This document shows positions 1,094 through 60,347 of a stretch of 64,000 nt of DNA, in pieces (positions within the stretch are counted from its first letter, which is position 1; each line of letters starts with the position of its first letter). Source of the DNA: Yuukianura sp. NJ FZ-2021. Lineage: Eukaryota. The stretch is taken from positions 372,001 to 436,000 of the forward strand of contig CM102284.1 of assembly GCA_046563655.1 (NCBI GenBank), read 5' to 3'. Below the pieces are notes generated by a model. That model saw nothing but the letters and a program-made list of their open reading frames with translations. It was not told the origin of the DNA and did no database searches. The position numbers were made by a program, and so were the translations under genes.

Positions 1094-2534
1094 ATGTTGA
1101 CCAAGGAGAGTCGTCGTATGCTTGGCCTGTACTTTGGAACTGCCGGTAAAATCGGGTTTCTGCCTTTGCATTGGGACAAAAGGTCAATGACCTTTGACCT
1201 CTCCAGCTCCTCGGGCATTTGGTTTTTCTGGATGGGCGTTATGTGGGCGAAAGTCATTTACCTCACGATCATCCTGGTCAAATTGGTCATAATTGACCAA
1301 GAGAAAGTCCGCAACATTATTTTCCATTTGTTCATCTACCTACCGTATCTTCAAGCGGGAATTCATCAGTTGAACTTGTTTAGAGTTCTGAACGAATATA
1401 AAATTCTCTACAGAGACTTGGTTATATTCAACAATATAAATTTGGGTAAGATACATCTCATTCAATTCGATATGCCGTCCACAACACAAAAATTACCGTC
1501 CGAAACACAACAAACCAAAACCCCGGCCAATACTACACAAAAATAGCCGGCTAAAAATAAATTCCCACTTGAAACAGAAAAGAGAATCCCGAGGAAGGCG
1601 AAAGTATTGCCCAACGCCGGCTGAAACTCTCAAACCAAATTAGGCCGGCTAAAACAATTTCCGCGGCCAAATAAAAACAATTTTTTTTTGTCGGAGATAA
1701 TGTTTTTTTTCTTAATTGAAACTTCGTATTGTAGGAAAACAACCAAAGGTATCGACGGATGAAACTATATTCGACGGATCGGCAGACATGACGAAACGCA
1801 GTATACTCATGATGTTTGGCATTTCTTTTAGCATTTTAGCAATTTCCCTCCAATTTCCGAATTTGCCCCAATTCTATTCTTCTTTATTTTCCACCGATTC
1901 GTCCGCGGTTAATTTTGGTTGTGGCCTCCTGGAGGCCATAACTGCCGCTGTCGCCTGGACAACAAATTTAAGCTACTCTAACATTTTGCCAGCGATGTCT
2001 GCATGTATGATTCACTGGATGAAGCGACTGGAGTTGACTGACCTTGACATTTCGAACGCGAGGTCACGAGGTAATGAGGTCACGAGGTCAGTGACCTCTG
2101 ACATTCTCATGTACAGAGCCATTCAAATTCTGGTGCGGCAATTCAATAATGTCATGGCCTTCAGTATTTTCAACCACTTTGGAATTGCGTTTTTTATCCA
2201 CTGTGTGGCCAACTACGGCATGGTTATGTTCTTTGGAGAAACGAATTTGACGTCGTGGATTGGCTACCCCTGTCTCGTCTTTTTGGGCTCAAAGAACTTG
2301 TTTACAATTGAAGTATTCTTGGGCGGAGTTTATGAAAGCAGTTGCCGAACACTGCGCAGTTGGAAGAAACCGGAGTCTGCGTTTAGCTCTCTCATTGGTC
2401 GAAAGTTTCGCGCCTCTTTTCCGGAACTGAAACTCCAGGAGGGAAGTGTGGCATTCTCTGACGGTAGAACAGGCGTTACTTTTCATTACAACCAATTCAA
2501 TTTTACACTCAGCTTGATTGTGGGGTCAAGATAA
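1094..2534 (+). CDS. Gustatory-receptor-like 7TM chemoreceptor, 2 exons (1094-1445, 1735-2534), ~383 aa
   Basis: The two hydrophobic ORFs join in frame through a GT(1446)..AG(1734) intron. There are multiple TM-like segments and a GR/OR-superfamily-like C-terminus (YRAIQILVRQFN...TFHYNQFNFTLSLIV). Confidence 0.7.
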
Positions 2535-3096
2535 ATTTATAGTGGACAAACATGGAAAACAATATATTACGTTATAGTTTACACAAAATTTAATGAATAC
2601 ATACATTTTATAGTATAACGCAAAATATATTTGTACAATATTACATTATAGTATCACATCCAGTTTCAAAATTTTGAAATGTAAGATTTCAGAAGAGTCA
2701 AAAGTTTTTTAGTTTGATATTTGTTCGTTATATATGTACTTGTTAAAAACTGACACAAATCAAGAAATAAATAAAAAGTAGGAATATCCTAACAGTGAAA
2801 TTGGCAGAAGGGAAACTTGTTTTTTTTTTTTTCGTTTTTTGAAAACTAGTTCCAACAATTGTGCTTAAGTTCTGAGAACACAGAAGTAAAACCAGTTTGG
2901 TTGAGGTCCTCTCAAGCCACGCCCCCTTTGCAAATTCAAGGCAACACTAACCCTCCGCAGTAAAATTTCTCGTGACAAAATTTGCTATATTTTGGATCTA
3001 AATATTTTCAATTTATTTAAAAAAAACTTTCCAATCACTTTCAAAACTAATTACATATTTTTTTAAATTGAAAAGTCCTATTACTGTATTAATGGA

Positions 3097-5858
3097 ATGT
3101 GTGTCAAAATCCTGTTGATTTTGCAAATTTTTGTTGCGGGTCAAGTGCTCAGTGACAACGGGTTCTGCCGCTTCCAGGAGTTCCGGTGCAAGGGAGGAAC
3201 CGTTTGGTATAATATGGCATATTTATACATTGATTCATATATTTACATATTATTTTATGTATTTTAATATTGAACTACACTTTGTTTTGAAATTAAACTT
3301 AAAGTATTATAATTTCAGTCTACTTTCAGAGAAACTCTGCGATGGAATAGAAGGTACACAAAATGTAGCACGGAATATTAGTTAAATTAATATATTAATT
3401 AATATAATATTTGAATATTATTGCAATTAAGTAATTAGTTAGTTAATTGTGCTAATTGTGGTGACCTTTGACCTGAAGACTGCCCTGATGGAGAGGATGA
3501 ACGGGGAAACGACCAATGGGATTGCAGCAGAGCTACGCTCGGCACATCTCAGGAATGTGGAGAGTAAGTAAAAAAAAGTGAATTTTTGAAATTATTCAAA
3601 GCATTAACTTTTTAAGTTAAAAATTTTAACCAATGCTTGTTGTTAGCGCACGGAAGTTTTTCAAGTGCAGGTTTGGCGGATGCGTACCCAAATCGCAGGT
3701 CAGCAGCCTTTTTCAAAAATATTTAAAAAAATAAATTCAACTTTTCTCAAAATTGTGTAAAATTGTTTTCTCCTTAGCTTTGTGATGGAATTTCGAACTG
3801 TTGGGGAGGTAAAAACACAAAAACTTTAACATTAAATAGATTAATAGAAATGAAATAACATTAATAGAAATTAAAATTAACCTCTTTCGTGCTCATTAGG
3901 AACCGATGAAGCGTCGGAATTGTGCGGAAAGTAAGAAATTGAATATTTCCAATATAAACAACTGAAATGACTATAATAAAAAATAATAGAGTAAGTATTA
4001 CAAAATAATACAGTAAGTATTATAAAACAGCCGAAGAAAAATTGTTGATGATCCGGCATCGGTAGCAACCAAACCGAAAATGCCGACACCTAAACCCAGA
4101 CCTCCTCCAACACCAAAACCCACAACAACAACAACAGAAAGAATTCGAACTTTCCCACCACAACAGATTTCAGCAAAGCCAAAACCGACTTCTGCACCAC
4201 CACCACCAAAACGAACCACAAAACAGCCGATTCCGCCAATGCGGACGACTAGTCACCCCATTCCTGTGCCGAATCCAGCCGAACCGGAACAGAACGAACC
4301 CGAACCCGGTACGACTTCGTGTCCACCAATCGACATCAAGGAAGGAGAGAATGTCAACTGTCTTTTAGCTGAACTAGCACAAATCATTGATTGCAAAAAT
4401 AAGAGATCGCCCGAGGGCACGCGGGCTACCATCAAGTAAGCCCCGCCATCTTCAAAATTTTGAAACTTAGTTTTTGAAAAAACGACGAAAATTGGTATTT
4501 ATGTTTTTTTTTAATTTCCCAAGATGTGCTAAATTCTGGAGTCCTCCGGCCACTGGGAGTCGAACTCGCAATCGCGTATGTCGCGGAGGTAGGTGGGAAG
4601 GTGGGAGTCGCAATTTCCAGTGTCAACTGGACTGTGGGGAGGGTGGGTACCCGCCGGTGGCTCTCGTGGCGGGTGGGATCACTTCGCAGAAAGGGAAATG
4701 GCCATGGCATACTGGACTGTACGAGGCTGACCCGCCGGGGTCAAATTCTTATGTCAACATTTGCGGAGCTACCCTCATTGGTCTAAATGCAGTTCTAACA
4801 GGTATGGGCATACTATAAAATTCAGGGGTTGAGAAACAAAGAACGAGAAAACAAAGGGACCCAGTGGGATTCGAACCCACATCTCTTCTATCCGGCAACC
4901 ACTCTAACCCTTGAGCTATCAGGACCCAGTTTATAACACGGGGGTGGGACTGTTACCAAACGTATATTACTTACTAAACGTATAAAATTTTCAAAAATTG
5001 TCGAAAATTTTGAAAAAGTATAAAAGACTTTTTTTTTATATTAGCTGGTCATTGCATTACAATTCCGCATACAAACGACGTGAAAAACAACCGTGACCTG
5101 TTGTTTTTCTTGGGAAAATTCTACAGGTCAGCAGGTCGAAATGACGAAAACGTCCAAGCTCTTAAACCAATCAAAATCGTTCTTCATCCAGACTACAACT
5201 ATGCAAACCTAGACTCCGATATTGCAATTGTCTTTCTTCAAAAGGCGTGGGAAAATTTGAAATTTTGAAGTACCCATACATAAAAAATCAAGTTTATTTA
5301 AAAACTGTTTTCAATTTTTAGAACGTCCAAATCACGTCCTTCGTCCATCCAATCTGCCTTCCATCTGAAGATGACGAACTCTACGTCGGTTCAAAAGGAA
5401 CAGTAAGTCAGGAAATGATTTATATTTTATTATGTATTAATATATTTTATTTTGATGTAAATTTATTATAAAAGTAATTGTTTTAGTTGGCCGGATGGGG
5501 TTCAATTGGTGACCGAACGTATCCAGAAGAGTTACAAGAAGCCGAGCTGCCATTTGTGAGCAGCATCACCTGTCAACGGAGTCACCCTGCGCTGAAAACA
5601 CTGATTCGACAAACGAACTTCTGCGCAGGTCACCGAAACGGTACTTCGGCATGTGACGGCGACTCGGGGTCAGGACTAGCCTTTAGTCACTCGGATGACG
5701 CCTCGAAGTGGGTGGTGGGTGGGGTGGTGAGTGGGGGCGTTCCCCGGACGGGGGGCAGAGGGTGTGACCCCCAACATTATGTCGCTTTCACAAATGTCGC
5801 CAAGTTTAGAACTTGGATTGACCGAGTGCTGGACAGAGAAGCGGATGAGTTTAAATAA
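3097..5858 (+). CDS. Modular serine protease: signal peptide, 2 LDLa repeats, Pro/Thr linker, Sushi-like module, trypsin domain; 11 exons
   Basis: Exons 3097-3206, 3319-3353, 3479-3563, 3647-3698, 3778-3808, 3900-3930, 4031-4435, 4524-4801, 5045-5244, 5322-5402, 5487-5858 splice in frame. LDLa motifs FRC..LCDGIEDCPDGEDE and FKC..LCDGISNCWGGTDE. Activation site L|VAGG; triad motifs TAGHC, DSDIA, GDSGSG. Confidence 0.9.
4825..4965 (-). mobile_element. tRNA-derived SINE-like repeat, copy 1 (intron of protease gene)
   Basis: Minus strand reads GGTCCTGATAGCTCAAGGGTTAGAGT...GTGGGTTCGAATCCCACTGGGTCC: A box, B box, D and T stems, but no valid anticodon arm. Homologous to 8405-8565 and 15605-15752. 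Confidence 0.7.
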
Positions 5859-6456
5859 AAGAAAGTTGGAACAGAGTTTAAATTTTTACTCAAATTTTGA
5901 AAATTGTTCTAAAAAAGCAAAAAGAAATGAATTTTTTAGAGTTTGAATTTGTTTTCTTAAATGTCGCCAAAGTTTAGTTTTAAAAGTGCGTCATAAAGTC
6001 AGTTGTGTAAAGACAATAGAAAGGATTTTTTTTAAAAGTTATCTGTTTGTTCAAACTTTTTGTCCAGGAAGTGTCTGTCATCGGTATACCAAAAATAGAA
6101 TTTTTTTTTAGAAGTGATAAGGTCAGAGGTCAAATTCACACAATCACTTCGCATGTCCATTGTTTGCACAGTGATCAAAAGATTAGAAATATCATTGCCG
6201 TTTTCCAAATTTTCGCGGTCATTTGTAGTTTTAATTTCGAAATTTCGAGTTTTTGAAAATTCGGGAATTTTTAGAAGTAAATATTGTTGAGCCAATAAGA
6301 ACAGATCCTATTGGTTTAAATATTTACCTCGCAGTCTCACAGTGGCCCAGGGCTAATTTTTTTTGAAAACCTTACGCGGCGAAATTTAAATCCTCAATAA
6401 CCCCACTTTACTGTTGTCATTTTTTTCTCTTCAGGAATTTTTGAGACCTCAGTTGA

Positions 6457-6679
6457 AGTAAGGATCGACGACTATTATTGCAGTCGCTAAGTGTTTCCAC
6501 TTCGACCACCTTTGGTAACTACAATAAATGGCTACACATAGAGGCAACATTTGTAGCTTTTTGAATTTCAAGAATCTTAATTTAAAGTGGCAACAAAATG
6601 TGCCGCATGCTGTAGCCGCTTATTGTAGCCTTAAAGTAGCTACACTATGTGGCTACAATGACTATCGTTCAGCCTTACT
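6457..6679. mobile_element. Degenerate MITE-like element upstream of Mo25
   Basis: Imperfect terminal inverted repeats AGTAAGGATCGACGACTATTATTGCAG / TACAATGACTATCGTTCAGCCTTACT, with internal TGTAGC/GCTACA motifs. Confidence 0.4.
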
Positions 6680-7100
6680 GCAACCAAAACTTCGCAATCG
6701 CCACTCGTCTGCTGTTTCAGTTTCTCTCTGAGAAATCAACACACCTCTACGTAAAAAAATCGATAAAAAACTGTTTCAAAATTAATCAGTAATCGAGTAA
6801 TCGACTAAAGTAATCAATTAACACAAACTCCACTACTATCTCCACTATTTCGTAACCAATACGCCTTCAAAACTTTGACTCTAACCTGAGTTCCGAATTG
6901 AGGTCAAGAGGTCATCAGCTGATCCCACCTTCATCGTGGTCCACTTGTCACGGTCTACAGGTACGGTGTCAATTCCATCTTCAAACTTAATCTACGACTT
7001 GTCGTTTTCTTAACGTATTTGGCTAATCATGGTTATAATTTGTGAATGCAGGATCATCCGAGAGAGGAGAGATCACTGATCGCACATCATTATGTTGAAG

Positions 7101-9011
7101 ATGCCGTTGTTTGGGAAGAGTCAGAAGAATCCTACCGAGGTGGTGCGGAGTCTAAAAGAGGCTGTCGTGTCACTAGAGCGTGGCGAGAAGAAGATGGAGA
7201 AGGCACAGGAAGAAGTGTCCAAACAGCTGACGGCTGTCAAGGGAATCCTCTTCGGATCATCGGAAACAGAGCAGCAGACAGAGATTCTGGTGGCTCAACT
7301 GTCCCAGGAACTCTACAACTCCAATCTCCTCGTTCTCCTCATCAACAATCTATCCAAGATTGAATTCGAAGTAATCACGAAGTCAATTAAATTTAGTTAT
7401 CATTTGACATTCTGGATTCCTGGAAGTCAAAGGTCAATTTGTTGGTTCTAGGGCAAGAAAGACGTGGCACAGATTTTCAATAACATTCTGCGTCGGCATA
7501 TAGGCTCTCGATCTCCAACTGTCGAGTACATTTGCACCAAGCCACAGATCCTCTTCACCTTGATAGCCGGGTAACTTTTAAGTTCATTGTTAGTAATTAA
7601 GTGAAGAGTTAATTGATATTAAGTTAGTGAAGTTAATTGACGATTAATTGTAGCTATGAGACGCAAGACATCGCCTTGAACTGTGGAACGATGTTGCGGG
7701 AATGTGCTAGGCACGAAGCACTGGCCAAGATCATTCTCAACTCGGAGGAATTCTACAAGTTCTTCGAGTATGTTGAAGTGTCGACATTTGACATTGCCTC
7801 TGACGCCTTCTCAACCTTCAAAGTAAGCAAAAATGGGAAATACTTGCAGATACTTGGCAGTACTTTTTGAAAAAACTGATCCTTTTGTTACAGGAGCTGC
7901 TTACCCGACATAAACTTCTGAGTGCAGAGTTCCTGGAGGCAAACTACGAAAAAGTTTTTGGGCACTACCAGCGCCTCCTCAATTCAGAAAACTACGTCAC
8001 GAGGCGGCAGAGCCTCAAGCTCCTCGGGGAGCTGCTCTTGGATCGACACAACTTCACAGTACGTTAATTCTAAAAAGTTAGGAAAATAACGTAACATTTT
8101 CAACATGCCCTAACAAAAACCTAACTTTTTCTTCCAACTCGTTAACTAACTCACTCAGAGTGATTTGTCATAATTTTGGGCTGTTGACAGGTAATGACCA
8201 GATACATCTCCAATCCAGACAACCTAAAGTTGATGATGAATATGCTAAAGGAGAAGTCCAGGAATATACAGTTCGAAGCTTTTCATGTTTTTAAGGTCAG
8301 TCATTTAACCTTAAAATACCGTAAAACTTCCAATAAAGGCTGGGTTCCAATAAATCATGGCCTTTAATACAAGCCGGGTCTTTATTACGGGTTTAGAGGA
8401 CCAACATGTCTTGAGAAACAACTAACGACAGTTTTAATGACATTATAAAAAAATTAAGAACCAAGTGGGACTCGATCCCATATCTCTTCAATACACGAAG
8501 AGGTTTAACCATTAAGCTATCAGCAACCTTGGCGATTTTTGCAATAGGACTGTTGCCACATCGCAAACCGGCCGATCTGCAGGCTAAAAAAATAGGAGCC
8601 TGCGCGTGTATTAGAAGTTTTACGGTAATTAATTTCTATTCCTTGTTCGTTCTGGGAACTTTCGTGACTCATCCATTTGAAGTCACGTCATGTCAGCTCT
8701 TTGTTAATTGAAATGCCAAGACTAATTAATTCGTTCGATAATTCATGATTAATTCATGACTAAACTTACGTAATTACATGTAATTACAAGTAATTAACCC
8801 AAGTTCTGGTTTGTCATAGGTGTTTGTTGCGAATCCAAACAAGCCTAAGCCCATTCTGGACATTCTGCTGAGGAACCAAGAGAAACTGGTTGACTTTTTA
8901 ACCAAGTTTCACGAAGATCGTTCCGAAGATGAGCAATTCAACGACGAGAAAGCGTATCTTATCAAGCAAATCAAGGAGCTCAAACCAACACCAGACAGTT
9001 TAGCAACTTAG
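7101..9011 (+). CDS. Mo25: Protein Mo25 / calcium-binding protein 39, 6 coding exons
   Basis: [11 protein letters not shown]...ELLTRHK...[23 protein letters not shown]...VFVANPNKP...[18 protein letters not shown]. Exons approximately 7101-7370, 7452-7570, 7654-7822, 7894-8058, 8191-8295, 8820-9011. An in-frame upstream ATG lies at 7092. Confidence 0.97.
8319..8625. mobile_element. Tc1/mariner-type MITE in last Mo25 intron, containing a tRNA-derived repeat
   Basis: 17-bp TIR CCGTAAAACTTCCAATA / TATTAGAAGTTTTACGG (1 mismatch), flanked on both sides by TA (8317-8318, 8626-8627). Confidence 0.75.
8405..8565 (-). mobile_element. tRNA-derived SINE-like repeat, copy 2 (more decayed)
   Basis: Plus strand GTGGGACTCGATCCCATATCTCTTC...TAACCATTAAGCTATC...GGACTGTTGCCACATCG aligns with copies 1 and 3. 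Confidence 0.6.
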
Positions 9012-10164
9012 GATGTGCTGGATGCTGCCCAAGTACATTCTGGATACTGCCCAAGCACATCCAAGGAATGTCGAAGTATATTTCGTCACGTAATTCGAGT
9101 TTTAGTTTGTAGTTTGTGGCGCAATCGATTTAAAAACTCCAGATTTACCGCCTAACGAGATTTTTGGAGCAAAGACGTTTTGATTTTTAGTTGGCGTAAT
9201 TTACAAATAATACTTAGATTAGTAATTAATTTCGATTTAATTAATCAATTAATCGATTAATCGTGATTTTAACGTCGAATGTAACCAATGATCAGAATGT
9301 AAAAATCAAATCAAGACAGAGAAGATACTTTCGATTTTGAAAACTTAAATGTTTGAAAAGTTAAAAAGTGAAAAGTAATAATTTTTTTAGAACTCCGCTA
9401 AAGTAACATTTTTATTCCAATTTTTGTGTTTTTGGGTTTTGGGGATTTAAAACGAATTAAAAGAGAAAAGCATTTTTTCCGTTTTTCAACAATTTTTTTG
9501 TGCTTTTCTCTTTTTTGAGACTAATTCTGAGGTTTAGTTAGGCCTAGATTTTAGAAATTGTTTTACAGGAAGAAGAAAAGTGTGGGAACTTTTGATTGTC
9601 ATGGATAATAACGATTGAGTCAATTTTTAGTTAACTGTCTAAATTAATTAATGACTAATTTCTAAACAAAGGTGAGTAAAAGTTGGAACATTTTTGGCTG
9701 GCATTTAACTTTTTGTAAAGGTCAAAGTTCAACTCTAAAGTTACAGGAGGCTTATCTTTTACGGTTTACTTTTCCGTAAACTTTTACTTTTTACGTTAAC
9801 TTTTACTTTTAAACTTTTTAGGAATTTGGTGAGCTAGAGGAGACTTTTATTGGAGAGGGACACTTTGGCCTTTTGAGTACTGTCTCCTATCTACTAAATT
9901 TTAGTTAACTTTGGTAATACTGTTAATTACTTTGAGTTAATTACTTAATTACTTTCAGTTAATTAGTTAATTACAATTAGTTTCATCCTCTGTTAAGTTG
10001 CTGTGGTTCTAGAAGGTGAGAGTCCAAGAAAGAAGAAGGTAAGTAACAGTTTTGAAGGTGGATGAGCATTTGTTGAGTGAGATCTTGTGTTTACTGGTTT
10101 GGTTTTTTTGAAGGTTTGGTTAGCACCTGACCTGTGCAGGTCAGGATTGCGACCTGACCTGCAC

Positions 10165-13100
10165 TTAAGAGTAGATCGTGATGACCTCGCGACCTCCGCC
10201 ACGCACCATCAGCACACGGTCAAGGCCCTCCGTTAGCACCTCGATGAATTCCATATCTGAAAACAAAAACTGACTTTGGACTTTTGACTTGGAAGTTGTT
10301 CGACTTTTCACTCAAAAGTTGTTAGACTTTTTACTTAAAAGTTGTTAGACTTGTGAATTGACTAAGGTCAATGACTTCTGACTTTAGATCAATGACTTTC
10401 ACGTTTTAACATTCGACTTTTCAATTAAAAGATAAGCTTTCGACTTGATTTTTTGGACTTCTGACTTTAGATCACTTTAGATCACTTCTGACTTTAGAAC
10501 TTCCTTTCTGACTTTAGATCAATGACCTTCGACGTTTTGTCAAAAGTCAATGACCTTTGACCTTTTGACTTACAGTTGGACTCTCCTTCCTGGTTTCTCG
10601 GAATTCCCGGAAGGTTAATGATGACGAGTTTGGCTTCGGCGGATTTGGCAGTGATCACTTCGTTCAACTTCACTGCCGTGTGCATCCGTCGTACATTTTC
10701 CTCACCTCTGTAAATTTTTCAAAAACATACTCTTTTTTTCAACTTTTTTCAAAATTTTGATTTTGATTTGTGATTTACGGTTTGGCATCTCCTGACTTCT
10801 TGGCACCATCATCATCGTCTCGGCTCGCTTCACGACTCACGAACCGAACTTTAGAGCAAGTGGTCGATTGGGGCGACGGTTTTGGTTCCTGGAGAATCCA
10901 AATTTTCAAAATTTTGAAAAAGTTTAAAAATTTGAAAATTTCTGAAAATCCTTACATGATCCTCAGTTGCTGGAGAAGTGGATCCGATGGATCCTGTTCC
11001 AATGCTGCTCACCAACTCTTCTACCATGGACCGTCGTCGCTTCTTGTTCAAATGGATTTCATTGAGCATCTGATTCCGCTGCTCCATCATTAGAGTTCGC
11101 TCGTAGGTGTAGGCAGAGATGTCGTTGGTCATCTAGGTCAAAGGTCAACGTTTTAGGGTCAAAGGTCAAATTTCAAGGTCAAAGGTCATTGACCTTACCA
11201 TCTCCACAACTTCGACCTCTGCGTCAATGCGGAGAGCGTACAAGAAGGCCGTGAGGTCCTTCTTCATCTGAATGGAATTGTCCTCGACCTGCGCAACGGT
11301 GAAGATACGCAGTTTGCATTTATTCCAAGTCCGATGCTGCTTAAGTAAAAATGGAATGAGCATGAGCAGCCCTCCGTCATGGATGATCCACCTAGAACCA
11401 CAAAATGGATTATGGATTAGGATTATGGATTTTGAAATGTATTGCGGAATTATGGAATTGCATTAAGAATTGTGGAATTGTGGGTTGTGCAATTGTGGAT
11501 TACGAAATTGTGGCTTATGGAATCGTGGATTATGCGATTGTGGATTATTGAATTGTGGATTTTGGAATTTTGTAGGGTTGAATTATAGAATTGTATTAGT
11601 AAGAATTGTGGAATTTTTGGTTATGGAATGGTGGGTTATGGAATGATGGATTATGGAACTGTGGATTAGATTTGCATATTCGAAGACTCACCAGATGTCA
11701 ATGACTCCGGAGACTTTATCTGTTGTGTCTGGGTAGAACTGCGTTCCTTTGGGAACGAGGAGAGCCATTTTTGCAACTGAGACGTACTTCACTGCACTCA
11801 AAAACACGCGTTCGTTTCCTTTTTGGCGCCAAGTGGAAGGCCAACCAATCAGAACAGTGTTTGGCTTCAGTCCACCCAATCCAGAAGTTTGAATTCTAAA
11901 CCAGTCAAAAAATTACCGCCAAAAATTTACAATTTTTTAAATTTAAAGTGATCTAAAGTCAAGAATCCCGCCAAAAAATTCTTACACAGCACAAATTCCT
12001 TCACAGACACTGCTCGACGACACGAGCACATCCGAGAAACCTTTGACCTTCTCCTCTTCCATGAGATTCTTGAGATTCTCCTGCGCCTGCGCAACCAATC
12101 CGCCACTCCGCTCATACTCCCCTTGCAACACAGAGGCTGCCATAACAAGCCCTTTGCCCGCCTTCAGTTGACTTGCCAGCACAAACAGTTTCCGTTGTTT
12201 CGGGGTCAGGTCGGGTGACAGTTTTGCCAGAATAAGAACTTGCGGACGCCAATTTTTCGTGTGTGGCGGGGCAACTTCCAGACGAAGCAGAGCATAACGT
12301 GCTGCAGACAGTGCCAGACCACGGATTCCATCACCCCATTCCTTTTCAGCACTAAAAACATTGAAAAAAAATCATTGCACCAGGGGAGATACGAACCCAA
12401 AGCTACCTCTCTCGGCGACGTCGCCCTATCGACAAGGCCATTTTGCTCAAAATCTGGAAAAAGCCGTTTTTCGCTTTCCAGGACATTACAAACTAATTTT
12501 TTCTGTAATATTTTAGAAAACTAACTTAATTTTATATATTATAATATATATTATATTATATAGTACTTACCCACGGTACTCGATGTACTTGTAGATGATT
12601 CCAGCGATTGCCATGGCCAGTAGAGCGTAGTACCAACTTGTCATGAACATAACAGTGATGCACAGAGAGAGTCCGATGAAGCTGCCAACCCAATGGTAAT
12701 ATTTGAAACGCGGGCGCCAATTCGGTGTTTTGAGCAGCGTCTGCACTGCGCATGCCAAGTTCACGAACCCATAGCACATGAGGAAAAACATGGACAGGAG
12801 CGGAGCCAAGTAGTCCACATTTCCAACTAAACCAAAAGTATATATTTTTATTGTATTAATATATTTTATTATTAGCATCATTTTGGCAATGACATGATCT
12901 TCATTGATCATCGGGAATTGTACAAAAAAGTGCTTACGAAGAACACCGCATTGGCAAATGCACAGAGTCACGATCAGGGCTCTACAAAACGAAAAAAAAA
13001 TATCATATCAACCCATCAGCAAATTTCCGAATCCAAAAATTAATACCATCGAAATTCAAATAGCAGCGACACGCAATTTTGAGCTTTCATTAAAAAAATG

Positions 13101-16100
13101 AAATGTTTCTTTTACACCTTTAAAAAAAACATCCAACGCTTTGGAGAAGAAAGAAGGAGAAAAAAGTGGAGTTTGTTAGACTTTTGACCTAGTTGAAGCG
13201 TTGAGAATTTGCTAAGAATAATAATTTTTCTAGAAATGAACTTTATTGTTTACTTACACGAAAATTTTAGAAACTGTTTTGGAATTTCAGTTTATAGGTC
13301 ACCACTTATTTTCAATTTCAAATTTTTAAAGCCAAAAGAGTTCAAAAAATTCATTCGCCTTTGTACTAATTTTTTGAGGTTAGGCTTCGTGCTCATCAGT
13401 GATTGGTTGTGGATCCAGGTTAGGCTGTTTTAAAACCTTATAAAACCCCAAGGTAAATAAAACACTAACTTCCAAAATTTGGAAACTTTAATTTGAAAAT
13501 GCGGCCTAAGTTGCTCCTTGTTGGTGTGGTGGGAGTTGTTTTCATGCTTTTCATCGCATTGGCTCAAAGCCACAACGTCTCTTCAGAAGTTGGGCTCAGA
13601 AGAAGAGCACACAAGGTCCATTTTAAAAATCATCTTTTTCTAAAATTCAAAAAATTTCCGTCTGGTTGAATTTGTGAAACGATACTTTGGAATTTGTGTA
13701 GAGCTGCGTTGGAAATGGAGGGGAGTGTTCTGGAAATTGTTGCCGTAGATACTGGTGTGTGCTGGAGAATTCTGGAAGTACTGGAAGATGCCGTAGAAAA
13801 TCCATTTGCAAAAACAACGGAGGCTGCGTAGATGCAGGCGATACTTGTGGGGGGGGCCCTAATCAAGGGAGTTGCTGCCAAGGTTTCGAGTGCAATTCTG
13901 GGACTAACCAATGTAAGTTGAACTTAAGGTTAAATGAAATGTTAGGCCTAACCTAACCTTTACTTGTAATATGTAAATGTACATGTCAGTCTTCTGAAGA
14001 AAAGGGAATGTCGTTTGGTTTTTTAGGTGAAATATGAAGAAATGTCGGAAAAACATTCTAAACATTTTTCGATTTTTTAATAAATGATCAAATTAATAAC
14101 TATTAATCCTAAACATGAAATATTTTTACCTTATTTCAAAATTTTGAAACTGAGAGTTGAATAAAATGAATACAAAAGTATAATTTAGTATTATACATAA
14201 ATGTAATACAATAAAACGAAAGGAAATAGCTGAGAGAACCTTCAGCAATACTTGGGATGATGTGAAATGTTTAAAAACGGAGTTTTTTGAACTTTGACCT
14301 AGTTTAGTTTTAGCTTTTGCTCTTTGTTTTTGAATTGATGAACAGGGATGTCAAAAATATTTAGTCTTCATACCCTTTTGAGTAAAAAGTCAACGTAACC
14401 GAAGTATGTTATGCTAATTTTAGTTTGCCTCCCACTCAATTCCATTTTTTTTACAACGCTGTTACGTTCCGTAAAAATATGGAAAGCATGACAATCAAAA
14501 ATCAAAAAACCTTTCCTGGGAATGGGAAATTTCGGCTCATTTTACGACTACTAGTACTCAGAATTTGGAATTTTTAAAATTGAATTCTGAAAATGAAGCC
14601 AAGGTTATAGTGACGAGAGGTCATTCACTATTTATACCAAATGTCAAAACTACCTACAGTTAATTTTGCCCAAAAGTACATCAATTTTTCATCTCTTCTG
14701 CTCAACAGACAACCGAAAAAGCACAACAGGTTGAAAAACCTTGTAAAATTCAAATAAAAAATTATTGTTTTCCTGGAAAACTATTTTTCCGTCCCCCAAA
14801 ATGTAAAACGGAAATTACGCCACACTTTATGTCACCCCTCTCCCACACACACGACAAACATTTTTGTTTTTCAAAAAACGAAATTTTGGCGCAAAAGTGA
14901 AAATCGATAGAAGGAAATTTGATATTCTGGAAACACTTTACCTGAGTGGCTCCCCACGAGCTGTACTGACGCTCACAGGTTCCAGGAATGGAATGATTCC
15001 GTCTTTAGCTATAAAAAATATTTATTTAATTATATTTACTCTTTATTTTATATTAATCACTTTCATTCGAAGTCTCATATAAAGAGAATTCCTTGTTTTC
15101 GAAGTGTTATTTTTTCAAAGTTTTCTTTTTTATAGTTCTGTTTGTCAAAGTAAAATTCCATTTTTATGGACGTCTCGTTTCTAACTTTAGAATTTTTATT
15201 AAATTCTTAAACAGAATTTTAACATTTCTGGGAATTTTCGAAGAAAAAAAAAGTAGATTTTTGGGTTAACCGCCCCATCAACCTCTTTTTTTAAATAATA
15301 AATTTGATGTGTGATACCGATTTTCACATGAGTCAATTATTTCTTTGAAAACAATTTTGAAAAAAAGTTCAGCCAATCAACTCTGCTTCGCATCTTGAAA
15401 AAGTAATAATTACAAAAAAAATGCTTTTGTCGTAAGCTAGAAATGCAATTTTTAGGCTAAAAAAAACATAACCCAAATTAAAATATGTTTTTGTTGTTCT
15501 TTCTATATCTCTCAAAAAAGAGAAAATTGGATCAATTATTTTCCAAACATGACGCCCATGAGACCTTTTAATTGTTTTAATTGGTTTCTAAGTTAAGGAG
15601 GGGTCGCATGCCTTGAGAGACAAAAGAGCAGAGTGTAGAAAAAATAAGGCACCGAGCGGGATTCGAACCCATATCTCTTCAATCCGGGAGGAGCTCTAAC
15701 CCTTGGACTATCACGCCCCGTGGCGATTTGGAGTGAGACTGTTCCCAAACGCTACAACTTAGCCTTGAATTGACTTACCAATGGCCTGGAGTAGACGTGG
15801 TGCTCCCGTGAGTGACTGCAGCCCTGCTCCAATAGTGGAAAGGAAAGAGCCAATGAGGATGACCCATTCGTTGGGCCACGCAATGTTGGCCACGGTGAGT
15901 CTCCCTCCGACGGACTTGCCGAACTTGTCCCTGAGGAGGTAGCCATCCACGGTGCCCGAGAAGAGAATGACACAACTGAGGTACACCGTGGACGTGGCCA
16001 TGATGGCCCCGATTGTCCCGATGGGGATTGACCTCTGGGCATCTCGCAAGTCACCTGACCGGTTGCTCCCCGCCATAATTCCAGTCACGGAGGGAAAGAA

Positions 16101-19100
16101 AATCCCCACCAATATTGTGAAAGATGTGGTGATGTCTATGATTACCTGCAACACAAGCGAAAATTTAAACTTTGACCCCGAGACTAAAAACAGTGACTTT
16201 TGATCCACGGGACTAAAAAAGTTGATCCATGATCCCCGGGACTAAAGAAGTTGATCCATGATCCCCTGGACTAAAAAAAAATGTTGATCAATGATCCCCG
16301 GGACTAAAAAATGTTGATCCATGATCCCCGGGACTAAAAGAATGTTGATCCATGATCCCCGGGACTAAAAAAATGTTGATCCATGATCCCCGGGACTAAA
16401 AAAAGTTGATCCATGATCCCCGGGACTAAAAAATGTTGATCCATAATCCCCGGGACTAAAAAATGTTGATCCATGATCCCCGGGACTAAAAAAATGTTGA
16501 TCCATGATCCTCGGGACTAAAAAAATGTTGATCCATGATCCCCGGGACTAAAAAATGTTGATCCATGATCCCCGGGACTAAAAAAATGTTGATCCATGAT
16601 CCCCGGGACTAAAAAAATGTTGATCCATGATCCCCGGGACTAAAAAATGTTGATCCATGATCCCCGGGACTAAAAAAATGTTGATCCATGATCCCCGGGA
16701 CTAAAAAAAATGTTGATCCATGATCCCGGGACTAAAAAAATGTTGATCCATGATCCCCGGGACTAAAAAAATGTTGATCCATGATCCCCGGGACTAAAAA
16801 ATGTTGATCCATGATCCCCGGGACTAAAAAAAATGTTGATCCATGATCCCCGGGACAAGAAAATTTTACCCTTGATCACCGGGAATACACAAGTTGATTA
16901 TGATCCCCGGGCTAAAAAAGTTGACCGTTGATCCCCGGGACTAAAAGTTGGTCGTACCTGGTTGTAGGCCTTGCCGTTGTCAGGGAACTGTGGTTCTGGA
17001 GAGACTAGTTGGTCCTGTTCCCGCCACGACGGCCAGATATTTCTCCAGAAGACGCCTGAGGCGAGACCCTGGATGCCATAGATCGTCCTCACCTCGTGGT
17101 CATCAAAGTACTCGTCACATCGGTCGTCACTCGACGGCTCACTGCCCATCGGGGGACAGTAGAGGATCCACAGGGGAGAACCCACGTCCTTCGTGCAATT
17201 CGTCTGTTCCAGCAGTCGATCCCCAAGTAAGCACAGTCTAACAATTAAAAACTAATTAACACCCAACACTAATTAACACTTAGTCCATCCACTAATTAAC
17301 TCCCCTGTTCCACTTAATTACTACACACAGAACCCCGCCTGCTACTCGTCAGGAGTCAATTTTAGGCACAGAATACCCGGATTTGACGTCATCCGAAGCG
17401 AAAGTGTGCCATATTTAAAAAAAAGTTGTACAAAAAAGGAGGGAACTTTCAAACTTTTCAAATTTTAATTTCAAACTATTCTTGGCTTAATCAAAATCCC
17501 CGCCTCAAATTATTATTTCTCTTTATTCTCAAAATCTCTCAAATTTTTCTCATTTTCTCCTAACATCTCTCGCAGAATCTTTTTTTTTTAATTTTTGGCT
17601 TTTCTCTAAAAATCTCTCAAAATTTTCGCTTTTCTCTCGTTTCCTCCTCTCAAAATCTTTCTCAAAATTTTGTCTCCTGTCTTTCCCTTCATTTATGTTC
17701 TCAAAATTTTGAAAACCTTGAGTTTTTTTTTACTTACGCCAATTTTTTGTTTCCGTAGATGTTGACAAAGATTCCAACGTAGACGGCACAGATGGAACAG
17801 ACGACACAAAGAAGAGCGACGACGGCAAATTTGTTGACGAATTTGACGCCTACGGAAACGACTCCGCCAATGATGATGAGCAGCGCTGTGCCATACACTC
17901 TGTAATTGTTGTACATGTTCTCTGGAACTGATGTTGACCCAAAGATACTCAGGCCAGGAGCCATGTATTGCTAGGGTAGAGGTCAAAGGTCAACTTTTCA
18001 AAAAAGTTCAAAATTTCTTCAAAATTTTGAAACTTACAATTAGGATTTCCACAGCACCGACAATGTACATGGCAGCAGCGAGAGTCGTTCCAATGTAAAA
18101 CAAAATCCCGACGGCGCCACCAAACTCCGGGCCTAAACTCCGTGAAATCATGAAATAACTTCCGCCGCCCGGAACAACTCCATTTGTAGCAATTGCAGAC
18201 ATTGAAATAGCAGTTAGCATTGTCTGAAAGGTCAATTAAGGTCATCAAAGGTCATTCAAGGTCATTGACCTTTTGACCTTTGAGTCTAGACAGGAAGCAT
18301 GAAGACTTACGACACAACAACACATGAAGACAATAGCAAAGGCGCAGATCGTTCCGGCCGTGCCCACAACCCAAGTTAGACGGATGAAGAGAATGACGCC
18401 AAAAATGTTCTGGATGCAGGGCAGAAAGACACCAATGAAGGTACCCATCTTGGAGGCTTGATTGGCGGGTGCAGCCCCACCCGCCCCACCGGCCCCACCA
18501 GGCGTCAGAGTTGACAGGACGTGGGGCAGGAGGAGGGACGAGGCATGTGGAGAACCCCCCGTCGTCCCACCGCCTGTCTCCTGCACAAAACATTTACATT
18601 TTAACTTTTAACTTTTTAGTATAAACCACCAAAAACTCCGGCTATTGACCCCTGCACTTAAAAAAAAAGTTGAAATGTTTTCCAAAAAAAAAGTTTAAAA
18701 AAAATTCTTTTCCTTTTTGATGTTTTTCAAAAATGGAAGTAAAAAGGCGGGGCATTGACCCTGCAATGAAAATGCTTAAAAATTTACGATGTTTTTCTGT
18801 TTTTTCCCTCAACATTCTGCGAAATCTAGCTACAAATCTTGAGGGGGGTTGAGGGTGGACGAACCCCGGGGATCATGTACCCCCGGGGATCATGTACCCC
18901 TGGGGTTCAAAAGTTGAAACTTACGTCATATAGGTATAGGTTGTGGGAGTAGGAAGGTGTTTTCTGCATGGCGTCTGTTTTGAGTCGTGGTTCTGGTTCT
19001 GGAGCAGTGGCTGTAGTCGTGTTTCCGATCACTTCCTCCTCTTTTTCATCTGGAAAGAAGCCGCAAGGTACATTTAATACTAAGAACACGACATGAATAG

Positions 19101-21620: not shown

Positions 21621-21814
21621 TTGCAAAATGAAACACAAACGAAAGGACGACGTAATCTTTATTGACACTTATTGAATAAATTGCATTGATAAATTTCTAA
21701 TACATTTAAATAATATTTGAATCAACGAATTAAATTACTATGATTCTGGTTGAACTTTGTTTTACGACAAAAACTTGTTTCCTTTTGACTAACTAAAACA
21801 GAATGGACTCGCAC

Positions 21815-23998
21815 TTAATTTTTTCCAATTCGTAAGTTTCTATTTCCCGCTTCTTTTAAATTTTCTTTCAAAGTTGTTACTTTAAACAAAGTGGGTCTCG
21901 TTTCTAGCAAATTTTGTTCATACTTGTGAACCGGAAGTGTTTCATCCTGAGTCCACTCGTAATTCAAAATTATAATTTTCCAAAAAGTTATTATCTCTTG
22001 TACCACAATTATGATAATTTTGAAAAACCTTTCAAGTACAAACGAAATCGTTGACACAGCAAATCCTATACACGGAATTGCAAAAATGAGAGACAAAGTG
22101 TCTAGTGTAAGAGGCTTCCTATCTAGAGAATTTCTGTCCACAATTCTCTGCAATTTAGCCTTGATTGGATCTTTTTCGTTCACATTTTGCATAAATTTGC
22201 TCCCGCTCTTTTTCAAATTGGCTAAAGTATCTTGAGTCCACTTATCTATAAATCCAGTGTCAATAAAACTGGCAACAATGTAGTGAAACGCGTTTGTGAA
22301 AACAGAGTTGCGCTGTGTTGCCACCGTCCAGATGACAGAGTATAACGGTGGTTTTGAGTAGTAAAGGGGTGTTGCCATTTGTGGCAACAAAGTCAAATTT
22401 CTGGCTATCCAAGCCTCCAGAAGTTGCTTCCACCCGACACAAACGAGGCCATCTTGAATAAACGCGCGTTTGACGCATTGTGCGCCGCTCGTTTCATCCC
22501 TCATGCGCCGTCTGACGAGTTTAACGTTTCGCTCTGGACTTGTGTCTAAAAAGTTGTTCGAAGCGGAGTTGTGATTGTGAAATAAAATGTCGTAAGTTTC
22601 AAATTCGGTCGCAAGTTGTTCCAATGTCGTAGGTCCAATGTACTGCTGAAACGGTACTGACAAGTGACTGCGTAAATTTCCAACGTAAGCAGCAGTTATT
22701 AACGTGGTATAGGCTAACCAAAGTGCCGTCACAAACCGGAAACTTTTACTACTTGACATAATTTCCGGCGTAGAAATCATTAGAGCAATAGCTATTGTCC
22801 TAAGAATTGACTGAGCAAAAAGGTCCAGCTGACTTTGCGGGAGTATTTTCCAAGTAAATTTGCCAGGTCGCAAAGTTACCATCGGTTTTTCGAAATTGCC
22901 ATGTCGCAAAGTTACTGTCGGTTTTACCGGTTCCCCGAACCGGAGACCGAAGTAAAAAGCCGGTATTATGCAAATTTGAGCCAATCCGAGCAAGATCCAG
23001 ACATCGCGTTGAAAAGAATGGAAAATTACCGACGGCGGCACGAACGGTTCCGGAAACGTACCGTAAAACACAAGATCGGCAGTGACGAACCGTGTGGAAA
23101 AATCGTGCATCGGCGACCGTTCTAAAGTGTGTGCCAAACAGAGACCGACGTCTGCTTCTTTGTTGATGATGCTCGCAATGAGTCCGTCCCATGTACCGTT
23201 GGCCAACTTGTACCCCGTGACACGACCACGTTCCACGTCCATGTCATATGTAAAATTGTATACTCCGGAGGCATATTTGACTATGTTGTACCCCGTACCG
23301 TGATACACTTTTTGTCCGGTTTCGGTAAACTCGAGATACGACCACGGAGCGATATCGATTCCCATCACGAGCAAATGTTTCCCCCGAACCGAATCCAAAA
23401 TTGACATTTCCGGTTTTCGCCGAATCGAAACACGCCGGTTTCTGAATGATATCGTTTCGGATTCGGAAAACATCGGTTTGGATTCAGAAAAAATTGGAAT
23501 TCCAATGGCGTCGCGGAATGTCCGGTCTCCGATTATTGCAAACATGTCGATAAGAACTGCCTGAGGCGCTATAAAAGCAAACCGATCTTTGTGGTTGTTG
23601 TTGAATGACATTGACTTTGAAATTGTGTTTTCAAGGTCACGTGAGGTCACGTGAACAACATAAGAATTGCAGTGCCGGGAAAACTTTTTACCGCGCACGA
23701 CTTCCGTCTGGTTCCGAAGTCTAGGACGGAAATGGACGATGGACGAGTAGACTGCTACTGGAATTCCGCCGTCCACAGTTTGACTTTGACCTTCAAAAAG
23801 GTCATTGACCCCGATCAAAACGTTTCTGTTACACCTAATGTTTGTTGGGTTGCTAGGGTCCCTTAGAAACGCAACCATTTCTGCAAGGACTCTCACTTTG
23901 TCAGCTTCGCCCAGTACTTCTGTAGCCTCCAAATTCAAGAAATTGGCGCCAAACAGTAGTAGAAACAAAAACATTTCAAAAAATTGCAAAATCTGCAA
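21815..23998 (-). CDS. Divergent ionotropic receptor (IR, iGluR-like chemoreceptor), single exon, 727 aa
   Basis: Signal peptide; S1 motif GYKLANGTWDGLIASIINKEADVGL..TLER; M1 (FQRDVWILL); M2 (LWLAYTTLITAAYVGNLRSHLSVP); S2; M3 (PLTLDTLSLIFAIPCIGFAVSTISFVLE). Confidence 0.9.
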   Translation of the reverse strand: MQILQFFEMFLFLLLFGANFLNLEATEVLGEADKVRVLAEMVAFLRDPSNPTNIRCNRNVLIGVNDLFEGQSQTVDGGIPVAVYSSIVHFRPRLRNQTEVVRGKKFSRHCNSYVVHVTSRDLENTISKSMSFNNNHKDRFAFIAPQAVLIDMFAIIGDRTFRDAIGIPIFSESKPMFSESETISFRNRRVSIRRKPEMSILDSVRGKHLLVMGIDIAPWSYLEFTETGQKVYHGTGYNIVKYASGVYNFTYDMDVERGRVTGYKLANGTWDGLIASIINKEADVGLCLAHTLERSPMHDFSTRFVTADLVFYGTFPEPFVPPSVIFHSFQRDVWILLGLAQICIIPAFYFGLRFGEPVKPTVTLRHGNFEKPMVTLRPGKFTWKILPQSQLDLFAQSILRTIAIALMISTPEIMSSSKSFRFVTALWLAYTTLITAAYVGNLRSHLSVPFQQYIGPTTLEQLATEFETYDILFHNHNSASNNFLDTSPERNVKLVRRRMRDETSGAQCVKRAFIQDGLVCVGWKQLLEAWIARNLTLLPQMATPLYYSKPPLYSVIWTVATQRNSVFTNAFHYIVASFIDTGFIDKWTQDTLANLKKSGSKFMQNVNEKDPIKAKLQRIVDRNSLDRKPLTLDTLSLIFAIPCIGFAVSTISFVLERFFKIIIIVVQEIITFWKIIILNYEWTQDETLPVHKYEQNLLETRPTLFKVTTLKENLKEAGNRNLRIGKN

Positions 23999-37622: not shown

Positions 37623-38955
37623 ATGCAGGACGTAATTAATACAGTTAAGGGAAGGCCCTTGGCATAGCCACTTCCTTGACTCCAAGGCTCCGAGAATCCA
37701 AGTTCCGTGAAACAGGGGTTCTTACGCCGGAAGAATTTGTGGCTGCAGGGGATCATCTTGTCCATCACTGTCCCACTTGGCAATGGGCTTCTGGAGAGGA
37801 ATCTAAGGTCACAATTATTCGAAAGACTAAGTATAAATAACGATTTACAAACGATCTAGTAACGATTACTTAGTTTATCGTTTGTTTCAGGCGGCGGACC
37901 ACCTCCCGAAGAACAAACAGTTTCTGATAACTAAAAACGTTCCTTGCTACAAACGGTGTAAACAGGTGAGGCTGGATGTTCCATTGTCGTTTTCAGTATT
38001 CTCAACAAATTAACCTTAAGAAAAGAGGAAAGTAATCGAAACTCTTTTGATTCAGATTGACTACGACAGGGAACAGGAAAAAGTGATTGACGAGGACGAC
38101 GATGGTGAGATGCGTTTTGAAACATTTGCCGATAATCTTTGTCGGCTGGACTCGCTGATCCGACGTTTGACGATAACTAATTTGATGTCAACGGTAACTA
38201 ATTCGATTAATCTGATGTAGGAGGCTGGGTGGACACTCATCATCACCAACCCATTGAGGAGGAAGTGGCAGAGATGAAACTAGAAGATTCTGAAACTCCA
38301 GGAGTAGTTGACGATGAAGATGAAGTTGCTGTGGATATGGATGAATTCGAAGCTTCTGGCCTGCTTGATAATCAAGACGACACTACTTTGCGTACGATAC
38401 CTCAAAAAGTTCAGCCTTCCGGTGAAATTATGCAAACGAGGTGAGTTTTCCTTCCAAACGATTCTACAACGATCAACTTAATTCATGATTAACATAATTT
38501 TCTGAATCTTAGAACATACGATCTGCACATAACTTATGACAAGTACTACCAAACTCCTCGGCTCTTTCTTGTCGGCTACAACGAGGTAAGCATTATCCTT
38601 AGCATATGATCATCTTAAGTGATTAGTTAATTAAGTTAGGTAATTGTGATCAACTAAGTGCGAACTTTTATCTTAGGATCGGAAGATACTCAGCGTTGAG
38701 GAAATGTACGAAGACGTCAGTCAGGACCATGCGAAGAAAACTGTTACCATGGAAGCCCATCCGCATTTGAGCGGAGTCATTGCAGCCTCAGTTCATCCTT
38801 GTCGACATGCTGTCGTTATGAAAAAGATTTTGGAAACTGTGGCCGAAGGAGGCAAAGATCTGGGAGTTCATGTCTACCTCATCATCTTCCTCAAGTTTGT
38901 TCAATCGGTTATCCCCACCATAGAGTACGACTACACGCAGAACTTTTCGCTCTGA
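37623..38955 (+). CDS. Atg3: Autophagy E2-like enzyme Atg3, 6 exons; 1-nt frameshift near codon 10-11 as assembled
   Basis: [10 protein letters not shown] / [74 protein letters not shown], catalytic [23 protein letters not shown]. Confidence 0.95.
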
Positions 38956-39282
38956 ACGTCTTATTTCAGTGGAATTCGCTTGCAAAACGATTTTCAAGGA
39001 GACCATTCCGCACTAACTTTTCGATATTCGTTATGTTCAAACTTAAGTTCAGAAATTGACTCGAAATTTTGCAAATTGAGAAACTTAAGGTATAAACGTA
39101 TTACATTTTATTATTATCTGCCTTCCAATTTAATTTAAATCTTGCTAGAGATTCATTACATAATTGATATTACTGGGGTTACATCATTACATCTTACATG
39201 CTGGTGTACTGTTGACTGGAGAAATGCTGGCGATGAATGTGCTGCTGGGGTTAGAACTTCTATGAATGTGTTGCTGGTTGGT

Positions 39283-40012
39283 TTACTTCTTGAGAAGTGC
39301 AAATCCCAGACCCACGAGAGCTCCAGCAGCCAGTAGTCCTCCGCCAGCGATCGCTGCTCCTTTCAGTGCATCAGAGTCCATTGCTTTCCGCATTTCCTTC
39401 TCGAGGCTCTGGGCTTGCTTGTTTCCAGGTTCATTCTGGAGCAGTAGTTTGACATACTTGAGGGCTTGGTTGTAGTCTTTGTTCCTTCCGTGACCAACTG
39501 AAAGGTAGTACAGGTAATCTCTGCGACGGGAGTCATCGGCTGCACCAGCTATACAAGGTCAAAGGTCAATTGCTAACTAATTACCAATCACTACTACTCC
39601 GCTAAGAAGTCAGAGATACCGTGTGGGTACTACGACTTACATTTCAAGAGCTCTTCCAGAAAAAAGATTCCCTTCTTTACATCAGTCTTTAGGCGAGATC
39701 GGACCTGAATGAACGGAAATCAATAGAAGCAAGTTTTAACCTTCATTCATATTACAACGTAACGATTAATCGTGTGATTAATTAGTTGCTTACCAAGCAC
39801 CAGGCATACTGAAAAGTCGTATCAGCTGACGGTGCTCCCTGTTCACGTTCAAGGTTATACTTCTCCTCGAATTCCTAAATCGACACAAAAACGATTGAAT
39901 TAGAAAATGCTTGTATCCACTAAGTACTGCAGCATTAGAAGTTGAGCAGCACTTTTACCCGAAGGAATTCGTCTGAAATGTTGGAAGTGAGGGCATCCGC
40001 GGCGTCGGCCAT
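39283..40012 (-). CDS. Fis1: Mitochondrial fission 1 protein, 4 exons
   Basis: TFQYAWCLVRSR..DVKKGIFFLEEL..RRDYLYYLSVGH..KDYNQALKYVKLLLQNEPGNKQAQSLE, followed by a tail anchor GAAIAGGGLLAAGALVGLGFALLKK*. Confidence 0.95.

Positions 40013-55619: not shown

Positions 55620-60347
<4,728 letters not shown>

Follow-up and report, generated by a model that had tools for sequence, protein, structure and literature searches.

Several systems have been described in which a short repeated word sits at intron ends or has been multiplied through a genome. In Trichomonas and Giardia, an extended motif in which the branch site and the 3' splice site are fused is common to nearly all introns. In teleost introns, complementary (AC)n/(GT)n repeats bridge the intron ends, and Alu repeats carry nuclear-receptor elements of the direct-repeat (DR) type, namely DR2. 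Introners are transposon-derived introns defined by similarity along the whole intron, and copepods are among the few animal groups named as carriers (PMC9860276). Here, a 64-kb stretch of nuclear arthropod DNA from Yuukianura sp. NJ FZ-2021 (contig CM102284.1, positions 372,001 to 436,000; the whole stretch is called the window below) is described. It contains the 13-mer TGACCTTTGACCT, a DR1 made of AGGTCA/TGACCT half-sites, whose core hexamer is enriched throughout the window and whose copies abut the acceptors of several introns.

What is new here is that AGGTCA/TGACCT is enriched in every compartment, coding sequence included. Nine perfect copies of TGACCTTTGACCT had been listed in an earlier note made from the letters of this DNA, and exactly those nine were found, on the + strand at 1188, 3462 and 10551 and on the - strand at 11135, 11176, 17980, 29753, 31492 and 39556. 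All are confined to the first 40 kb of the window, and 100 dinucleotide shuffles yielded none. The hexamer itself occurs 109 times, against 26-42 expected from Markov models of order 1-3, which corresponds to about 1.7 half-sites per kb and about one DR1 per 7 kb. Each compartment was also ranked against 180 hexamers of the same base composition. AGGTCA/TGACCT came first in exons (37 occurrences, median 9), in the non-coding parts of the gene regions drawn by the gene finder (10, median 1) and in unassigned DNA (27, median 8), and second in introns (35, median 4), where it was topped only by a word from a local minisatellite. The excess is independent of strand and compartment and includes a 3' untranslated region (UTR) and intergenic DNA. 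One suggestion of the earlier note, a genome-wide mark coupled to exon boundaries, is therefore only half sustained: the excess does run through the whole window, but it is equal in coding exons (in all frames), the 3' UTR and intergenic DNA, and is thus not tied to exon boundaries. A search of one literature library, judged from its listings, found no description of the 13-mer as an intronic or genome-wide repeat, returning only papers on receptor biology or unrelated subjects.

Genes in the window are dense and introns short. Pfam matches on open frames identify a trypsin-type protease, Mo25, a K-Cl cotransporter (KCC, - strand), an ionotropic receptor, Fis1, an EST1/PIN protein and an RRM-CID-cwf21 protein; Rfam and tRNA scans gave no match. 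Introns were placed with a home-made Viterbi gene finder (3-periodic Markov coding model, generic donor and acceptor scores) that is blind to TGACCT, and a brute-force intron enumeration, with 2604 candidates, was set aside for it. The finder returned 79 introns, of which 8 were removed (four antisense to KCC, three antisense to a weakly M28-like gene and one that runs across Fis1 on the opposite strand), leaving 71. KCC shows 82-86% identity to insect proteins over its best exon and about 60-64% overall, with no insect order standing out, and the spliced model aligns lengthwise with insect KCC. KCC introns 11133-11198, 17971-18037 and 18224-18310 are confirmed by this alignment, since their removal makes it seamless. 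Altogether six introns carry the motif at the 3' end: these three, two that are gene-finder predictions, and one that depends on an LDLa-like reading of its junction.

Five of the nine copies end 0-7 nt before an acceptor AG, as had been claimed, and this is borne out by the gene-finder models and the one read by hand. Motif and AG are separated by 2 nt at 3462 (TGACCT-GA-AG), 0 at 11135, 7 at 17980, 2 at 29753 and 5 at 39556. Their assignment to four genes (protease, KCC twice, M28 and Fis1) also stands as far as placement goes, with the M28 identity weakened to 'weakly M28-like', as the Pfam match is sub-threshold (E 0.037). Searches of PDB with the M28-like open reading frames (ORFs) gave nothing useful and no homologue confirming intron 29749-29835. 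In the protease, intron 3354-3478 (+ strand) ends with TGACCTTTGACCTGAAG, the DR1 lying at 3462-3474. Its acceptor was missed by the gene finder, and the junction was corrected by hand: exon 3330-3353, joined to the exon that starts at 3479, reads LCDGIE and then, across the junction, DCPDGEDE, which we take to be an LDL-receptor-A-like signature, and a trypsin domain (Pfam) lies downstream. An in-frame TGA within the 13-mer at 3462 forbids an earlier exon start. Pfam found no match in the 31-residue LDLa-like fragment.

The KCC introns all lie on the - strand. The 66-nt intron 11133-11198 consists of GTAAGGTCAA, three DR1 units and AG, and its description in the earlier note as three such units is correct, two being perfect (11135 and 11176, the latter beginning 10 nt after the donor) and one imperfect. 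It contains an in-frame stop, and Tandem Repeats Finder (TRF) reports it as a period of 7 with 7.9 copies. In the 67-nt intron 17971-18037, the DR1 lies 7 nt before the acceptor AG, and the junction runs seamlessly from EILI to QYMAP. The 87-nt intron 18224-18310 holds two AGGTCA, a palindrome and the expected stack of four TGACCT words, at 10-nt spacing, followed by TTCAG. A further KCC intron of 317 nt (10257-10573 in the gene model) starts with GTAAGTCAAAAGGTCAAAGGTCA and, as TRF also reports, is built almost wholly of degenerate TGACTT/TGACCT words; copy 10551 lies in it in the antisense form, 10 nt after the donor. The predicted introns are 29749-29835 (- strand, 87 nt), which ends with TTGACCTTTGACCTTTAG in the weakly M28-like gene, and 39549-39640 (- strand, 92 nt), which ends with TTGACCTTTGACCTTGTATAG in Fis1, upstream of an exon that matches Fis1_TPR_C (E 3e-21). 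Copy 31492 (31492-31504, - strand) reads AGGTCAAAGGTCAAC-T13-GCAG on the + strand, so that the sense strand shows AGGTCA, ending 19 nt before the 3' end of the predicted + strand intron 31307-31523 of an unconfirmed gene. The count of eight intronic copies accordingly holds with these models, that at 31492 only if the predicted + gene 31122-32033 is real. In the same place, at 31332-31446, a 31-bp tandem repeat of 3.7 copies bears a CCAAT-box-like GAACCAATCA in each unit; it lies either between the divergent M28-like and + strand genes or within the predicted intron of the latter.

The position of the motif in introns is strand-specific. Sense TGACCT occupies 10 of the 1775 positions in the last 25 nt of the 71 introns, against 14 of 25236 elsewhere (odds ratio 10, p 1e-6), a word-level p that is generous because the words are clustered in five introns. 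Sense AGGTCA is unbiased (2/1775 against 18/25236, p 0.38). With random placement of the four terminal perfect 13-mers in short predicted introns, the joint probability that all lie no more than 9 nt from the end is 4e-4. The motif stands at the 3' end in 5 of the 71 predicted introns, or in 6 of 72 when the hand-corrected protease intron is included. In four of the five motif introns, it holds the sole YTRAY word between -9 and -45. The first A of its TTGAC falls at -13 to -20 and is followed by an AG-free pyrimidine-rich stretch and then the acceptor, as befits a branch site, and in none of the five minimum-energy intron folds is the terminal DR1 paired. The A of the motif is therefore probably the branch point in these introns, as judged from the letters. 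The lineage-specific module of branch point and pyrimidine tract that the earlier note had proposed thus fits the introns that carry the motif, in position bias and as the sole YTRAY word in four of five; as a lineage-wide splice consensus, to be expected in most introns, it fails at 5/71. U12-type introns have an RTATCCTT donor with a TCCTTRAC branch site, and were ruled out since the donors here are of the GTAAG type. An interstitial telomere-like repeat was also considered and found no support.

The excess extends into coding sequence. In the confident ORFs, which are backed by Pfam or homology and total 10,258 nt, AGGTCA/TGACCT is found 16 times, with every frame and both orientations represented. 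Shuffling the codon order of the same 10,258 nt gave 4.21 +/- 2.01 hexamers, and none of 2000 shuffles reached 16. Among 1953 hexamers, it is the most over-represented one in this coding sequence (z 5.75), the next being close at 5.59. The sole non-intronic perfect copy, at 1188, lies within a 154-codon frame and is coding, because the alignment with four relatives runs from the start codon through the motif-encoded residues and shows invariant positions to either side of them; the remainder of one of these homologues is matched by the next ORF. The gene concerned (1094-2534, + strand) has at least two exons and encodes a multi-pass membrane protein without a Pfam family. A search of 1.8 billion representative proteins gave only four relatives at E 0.001 or better, which suggests a lineage-restricted family. 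In this exon, the 13-mer is part of the 21-mer AAGGTCAATGACCTTTGACCT (1180-1200, + strand), a palindromic inverted repeat (IR1) plus DR1 that encodes KRSMTFDL in a loop of the protein. A metagenome scan with the 21-mer gave one match, on an apparently bacterial contig of 64% G+C that is irrelevant here. The second coding exon carries a TRF array of period 8, (CGAGGTCA)x4, at 2059-2090 (+ strand), which is the site of a 6-residue insertion relative to the homologue (BLASTP gap at VTRSVT), again in a coding loop. A third coding array, (AGGTCACGTG)x2.1 (23634-23654, + strand, TRF), lies inside the ionotropic-receptor ORF with its Lig_chan match. This ORF is a single exon of 735 codons (21815-24022, - strand; Lig_chan-Glu_bd and Lig_chan), and no relative at E 1e-10 or better was found for its 735 residues among 8000 candidates scored.

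The geometry of the half-sites is that of receptor elements. Pairs of half-sites comprise 10 DR1 (9 with an A spacer), 4 IR1, 4 DR4 and 3 DR2, and three of the four IR1 are the perfect AGGTCA-A/T-TGACCT palindrome. Half-sites are preceded by an A-rich 5' flank, with AA in 30 of 109. TRF reports arrays with an AGGTCA core at periods of 7, 8, 10 and 20, those of period 7 having 2.1-7.9 copies; as the period varies around a constant core, the constant element is the hexamer and not a fixed unit. A DR1 with a G spacer, AGGTCAGAGGTCA (6120-6132, - strand), is intergenic between the protease and Mo25 genes, and a DR2, AGGTCAAGAGGTCA (6901-6914, - strand), also intergenic, precedes the predicted start codon of Mo25 by about 180 bp. 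The KCC stop codon is immediately followed by a perfect 12-bp hairpin of AGGTCA/TGACCT words (10110-10166, - strand), which folds at -32 kcal/mol (z -7.1), better than any of 200 shuffles. Five half-sites in nested inverted repeats lie at 61510-61563 (+ strand; fold z -3.3) in an unannotated context.

These geometries presumably match particular nuclear receptors (USP/RXR, HNF4, Svp and EcR-USP), and the copies could be genuine sites of such receptors that are kept by binding, their placement at splice sites being secondary or occupancy influencing splicing. The exactly canonical half-site with its A-rich flank, the preference for the classical dimer spacings DR1, IR1, DR4 and DR2, and a hexamer that stays constant while spacing varies, as in clusters of binding sites, all agree with this. 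So do the excess irrespective of strand and compartment, which suits a reader at the DNA level, and the copies at 6120 and 6901 upstream of Mo25. However, binding to DNA gives no reason why arrays of one orientation should end 0-7 nt before an acceptor AG. The density, which extends to coding sequence in all frames, is far above that of receptor target sets, and to our knowledge no such set approaches 1.7 half-sites per kb. Genuine receptor sites are an unlikely explanation, and the strand-specific position at acceptors speaks against a purely receptor-site origin in particular.

There are also signs of copying. The 21-mer AAGGTCAATGACCTTTGACCT is identical at 1180 in the coding exon and at 11176 in the KCC intron, and relatives with one and three mismatches occur at 10364 and 10543 in KCC intron 10257-10573. 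The oriented flanks of the nine 13-mer copies have nothing in common beyond about 16-21 nt. Nine DNA contigs from the organism itself differ slightly from the window over 11156-11174. Thirty-one contig records run off the array of the 66-nt intron at 11135, and their continuations agree poorly (0.39). A run from a related organism (X5) covers 17580-18108 at about 96% identity, and one of its contigs returns from 1198 to 1177 after 35 other letters, forming a tandem 22-mer. Its word depth reaches 1142, whereas long pieces of the run have 3-4; such depth does not measure copy number, and the contigs include some from other organisms. The contig evidence is for this reason only a lead, towards an array at other loci and perhaps a short satellite. 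A second intron that starts with GTAAGGTCAA, at 50750-50847 (+ strand, placed by the gene finder), has a 3' end without the motif.

It is possible, though doubtful, that the copies are fragments or templated insertions of one high-copy repeat, such as a satellite, a tiny palindromic mobile element or a retroelement tail, and that introns made of the motif alone are introner-like. The 21-mer shared by exon and intron, the 317-nt intron made entirely of degenerate motif words and the tandem 22-mer contig, with the same reservation on its depth of 1142, would be accounted for in this way, as would the GTAAGGTCAA start of 2 of the 71 introns, the inverted ends of the 66-nt intron and the confinement of all perfect copies to the first 40 kb. 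A common carrier is nevertheless at odds with flanks that share nothing past 16-21 nt, with the disagreeing run-off records at 11135, and with a distance from motif to AG that varies from 0 to 7 nt. The single coding hexamers, which fall in all frames, cannot have been inserted. Only intron 11133-11198 has a 3-nt ATG repeat and inverted ends, and the other four motif introns have neither, so that consistent target-site duplications are lacking. The introner reading itself failed, since the shared sequence is at most 21 nt and falls short of the whole-intron similarity by which Introners are defined (PMC9860276).

Pairing of AGGTCA near the 5' end with TGACCT at the 3' end of the pre-mRNA, which would bring the splice sites together, would explain why two donors consist of GTAAGGTCAA. 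The 66-nt and 87-nt KCC introns do fold better than shuffles (z -2.8 each), but the other three of the five motif introns have no excess structure (z -0.18, -0.11 and +0.76), and four of the six motif introns lack AGGTCA at the 5' end. The helices are local hairpins and do not run end to end, the terminal DR1 being unpaired in each of the five folds. Bridging as a general mechanism is rejected on account of the local hairpins and the three unstructured introns, and we regard it as very improbable. Neutral slippage, in which many intronic short tandem repeats arise and these happen to be seeded on a common word, fits the 199 TRF rows in 64 kb, many of them of unrelated units, a number that marks this DNA as unusually rich in short tandem repeats; branch-like words of other kinds are also repeated within introns, e.g. 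GTAACT four times in 57206-57298. Slippage leaves unexplained the excess of single hexamers in coding DNA, the bias towards 3' ends and the recurrence of the same exact 13-21-mers across genes, and can hardly be credited as the main cause.

The explanation put forward here, tentatively and at somewhat short of an even chance, is that a micro-repeat with a hexamer core spreads or is kept at the DNA level, and that its TGACCT-sense copies at the 3' ends of introns provide the sole branch-like words together with an AG-free pyrimidine-rich tract. The unit would be the AGGTCA/TGACCT hexamer rather than the 13-mer, kept or multiplied on DNA in every compartment. It occurs as local direct and inverted repeats of variable spacing, short composites of 13-21 nt recurring at unrelated sites. 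Candidate drivers at the DNA level are a protein recognising AGGTCA dimers, a process of copying or repair, or a tiny piece of mobile or satellite origin. Splicing selection would then sort the intronic copies. A TGACCT direct repeat is AG-free, about 70% pyrimidine and contains two TTGAC words, so an array of it can abut the acceptor of a short intron as both branch site and pyrimidine tract. The observations on which this explanation builds are the excess in all compartments, the position bias, the lack of competing branch-like words and the 21-mer shared by exon and intron. A purely splicing origin is disfavoured by the excess in coding and intergenic DNA, the exact 13-21-mers in unrelated genes and the absence of single words at acceptors. 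A combined view, in which a genome saturated with perfect DR1/IR1 elements uses them as sites for receptors or other dimeric proteins on DNA and, in TGACCT sense, as branch modules, occupancy and 3' splice choice being coupled, is quite improbable.

Several points weigh against the hexamer-core explanation. Among the 66 motif-free introns, the branch window contains CTAAT in 8, TTGAT in 8, TTAAT in 7 and TTGAC in 5; TTGAC is unpreferred there (odds ratio 1.5, p 0.39) and never followed by CT, so a generic branch-site constraint fails to explain an identical 7-mer or 13-mer. The last TGAC A of the motif lies only 6-13 nt from the acceptor, which leaves the upstream word alone at the usual branch distance. 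No single TGACCT occurs in the last 25 nt of any predicted intron; there is always at least a dimer, which points to a dimer-recognising factor or to copying. Arrays of the opposite orientation occur near the 3' end in 7371-7451, in 31307-31523 and, as a degenerate copy, in 10257-10573, the AGGTCA orientation being found near 3' ends only at least 14 nt upstream and then followed by a T-run. The gene finder mis-set at least three acceptors: that of the protease, and at least two elsewhere in KCC, where extra residues appear in two other stretches of the aligned model. All counts come from one 64-kb window. Finally, we infer both the use of the motif A as a branch point and the cause of the DNA-level enrichment, which may be any of the candidates named above.

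A number of other repeats are found in the window. A 31-bp minisatellite, TGATCCCCGGGACTAAAAAAATGTTGATCCA (24.6 copies, 90% matches, 16201-16946), fills most of KCC intron 16957-16242, and a short related piece lies at 18864-18909. In KCC intron 11691-11392, a 15-bp unit is repeated 13 times (11405-11668), and a 48-bp unit forms a tandem array of 4.2 copies at 43426-43627, in intronic or intergenic DNA. A repeat of about 91 nt with a tRNA-like GGGATTCGAACCC core is present in three copies (4847-4937, 8448-8538 and 15639-15729) in or beside introns. ARAGORN calls no tRNA in them, so that by appearance they are fragments of the short interspersed element type; contig depth is raised over the bins that contain them. 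A dispersed repeat of about 550-700 nt also has three copies, at 13279-13833, 34626-35185 and 35856-36411 (62-83% identity), and the single TGACCT words at 13185 and 35848 adjoin it and share a longer common context. The second dispersed over-represented word is the perfect palindrome TTCAAAATTTTGAA, which with its variants occupies about 25 places, mostly in introns and intergenic DNA (e.g. 2664, 4451, 10747, 10904, 14134, 18018, 35518, 36057 and 60065), and has no fixed position relative to splice sites in the window.

Upstream of the EST1/PIN gene, long inverted repeats occur at 44552-45266 and 45670-46151, comprising nested ones with arms of 60 nt (98%), 73 nt (84%) and 54 nt (94%) and a separate pair with 99-nt arms at 91%. 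They look like foldback elements or elements of the miniature inverted-repeat transposable element type. A homologue search with the EST1 ORF found none at E 1e-10 or better. The stretch from about 760 to 880, which precedes the first gene, is covered by many contigs of both runs, and position 819 is T in 24 contigs of run X1 and 10 of run X5 where the window has C; this stretch is probably another dispersed repeat.

If the pattern is genome-wide, one short word would be under two constraints. A DNA-level force would be strong enough to push the word into coding sequence in all frames, and selection at the RNA level would set TGACCT dimers against 3' splice sites. Such a genome would be a system for asking how simple repeats turn into splice signals, how identical 13-21-mers spread across genes without a visible carrier element, and whether a genome tolerates thousands of optimal hormone-receptor sites. 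For annotation, caution is advised, as perfect DR1 or ecdysone-type palindromes in this genome are not readable as regulatory elements by themselves.

Among the known systems, the teleost repeats are similar in that simple repeats at intron ends could replace normal recognition of the 3' splice site, whereas bridging is unsupported for most motif introns here. Alu DR2 elements offer the example of a receptor half-site array multiplied through a genome by copying; in contrast, this window shows no carrier element that exceeds about 21 nt. As in Introners (PMC9860276), the repeated sequence forms most of some short introns and has inverted ends in one of them, but the similarity is limited to 13-21 nt, without consistent target-site duplications or terminal inverted repeats. 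With the DR1 and IR1 (PAL1-type) elements of nuclear receptors, the motif shares the half-site, the preferred spacings and the A-rich 5' extension; it differs in being orders of magnitude denser, in entering coding frames and in its single orientation at 3' splice sites. The introns of Trichomonas and Giardia are similar in having a long invariant word directly at the acceptor that holds the presumed branch A. Here, unlike in those organisms, the word marks 5 of 71 predicted introns (6 of 72 with the corrected one), stands at a variable spacing from the AG and is common outside introns as well.

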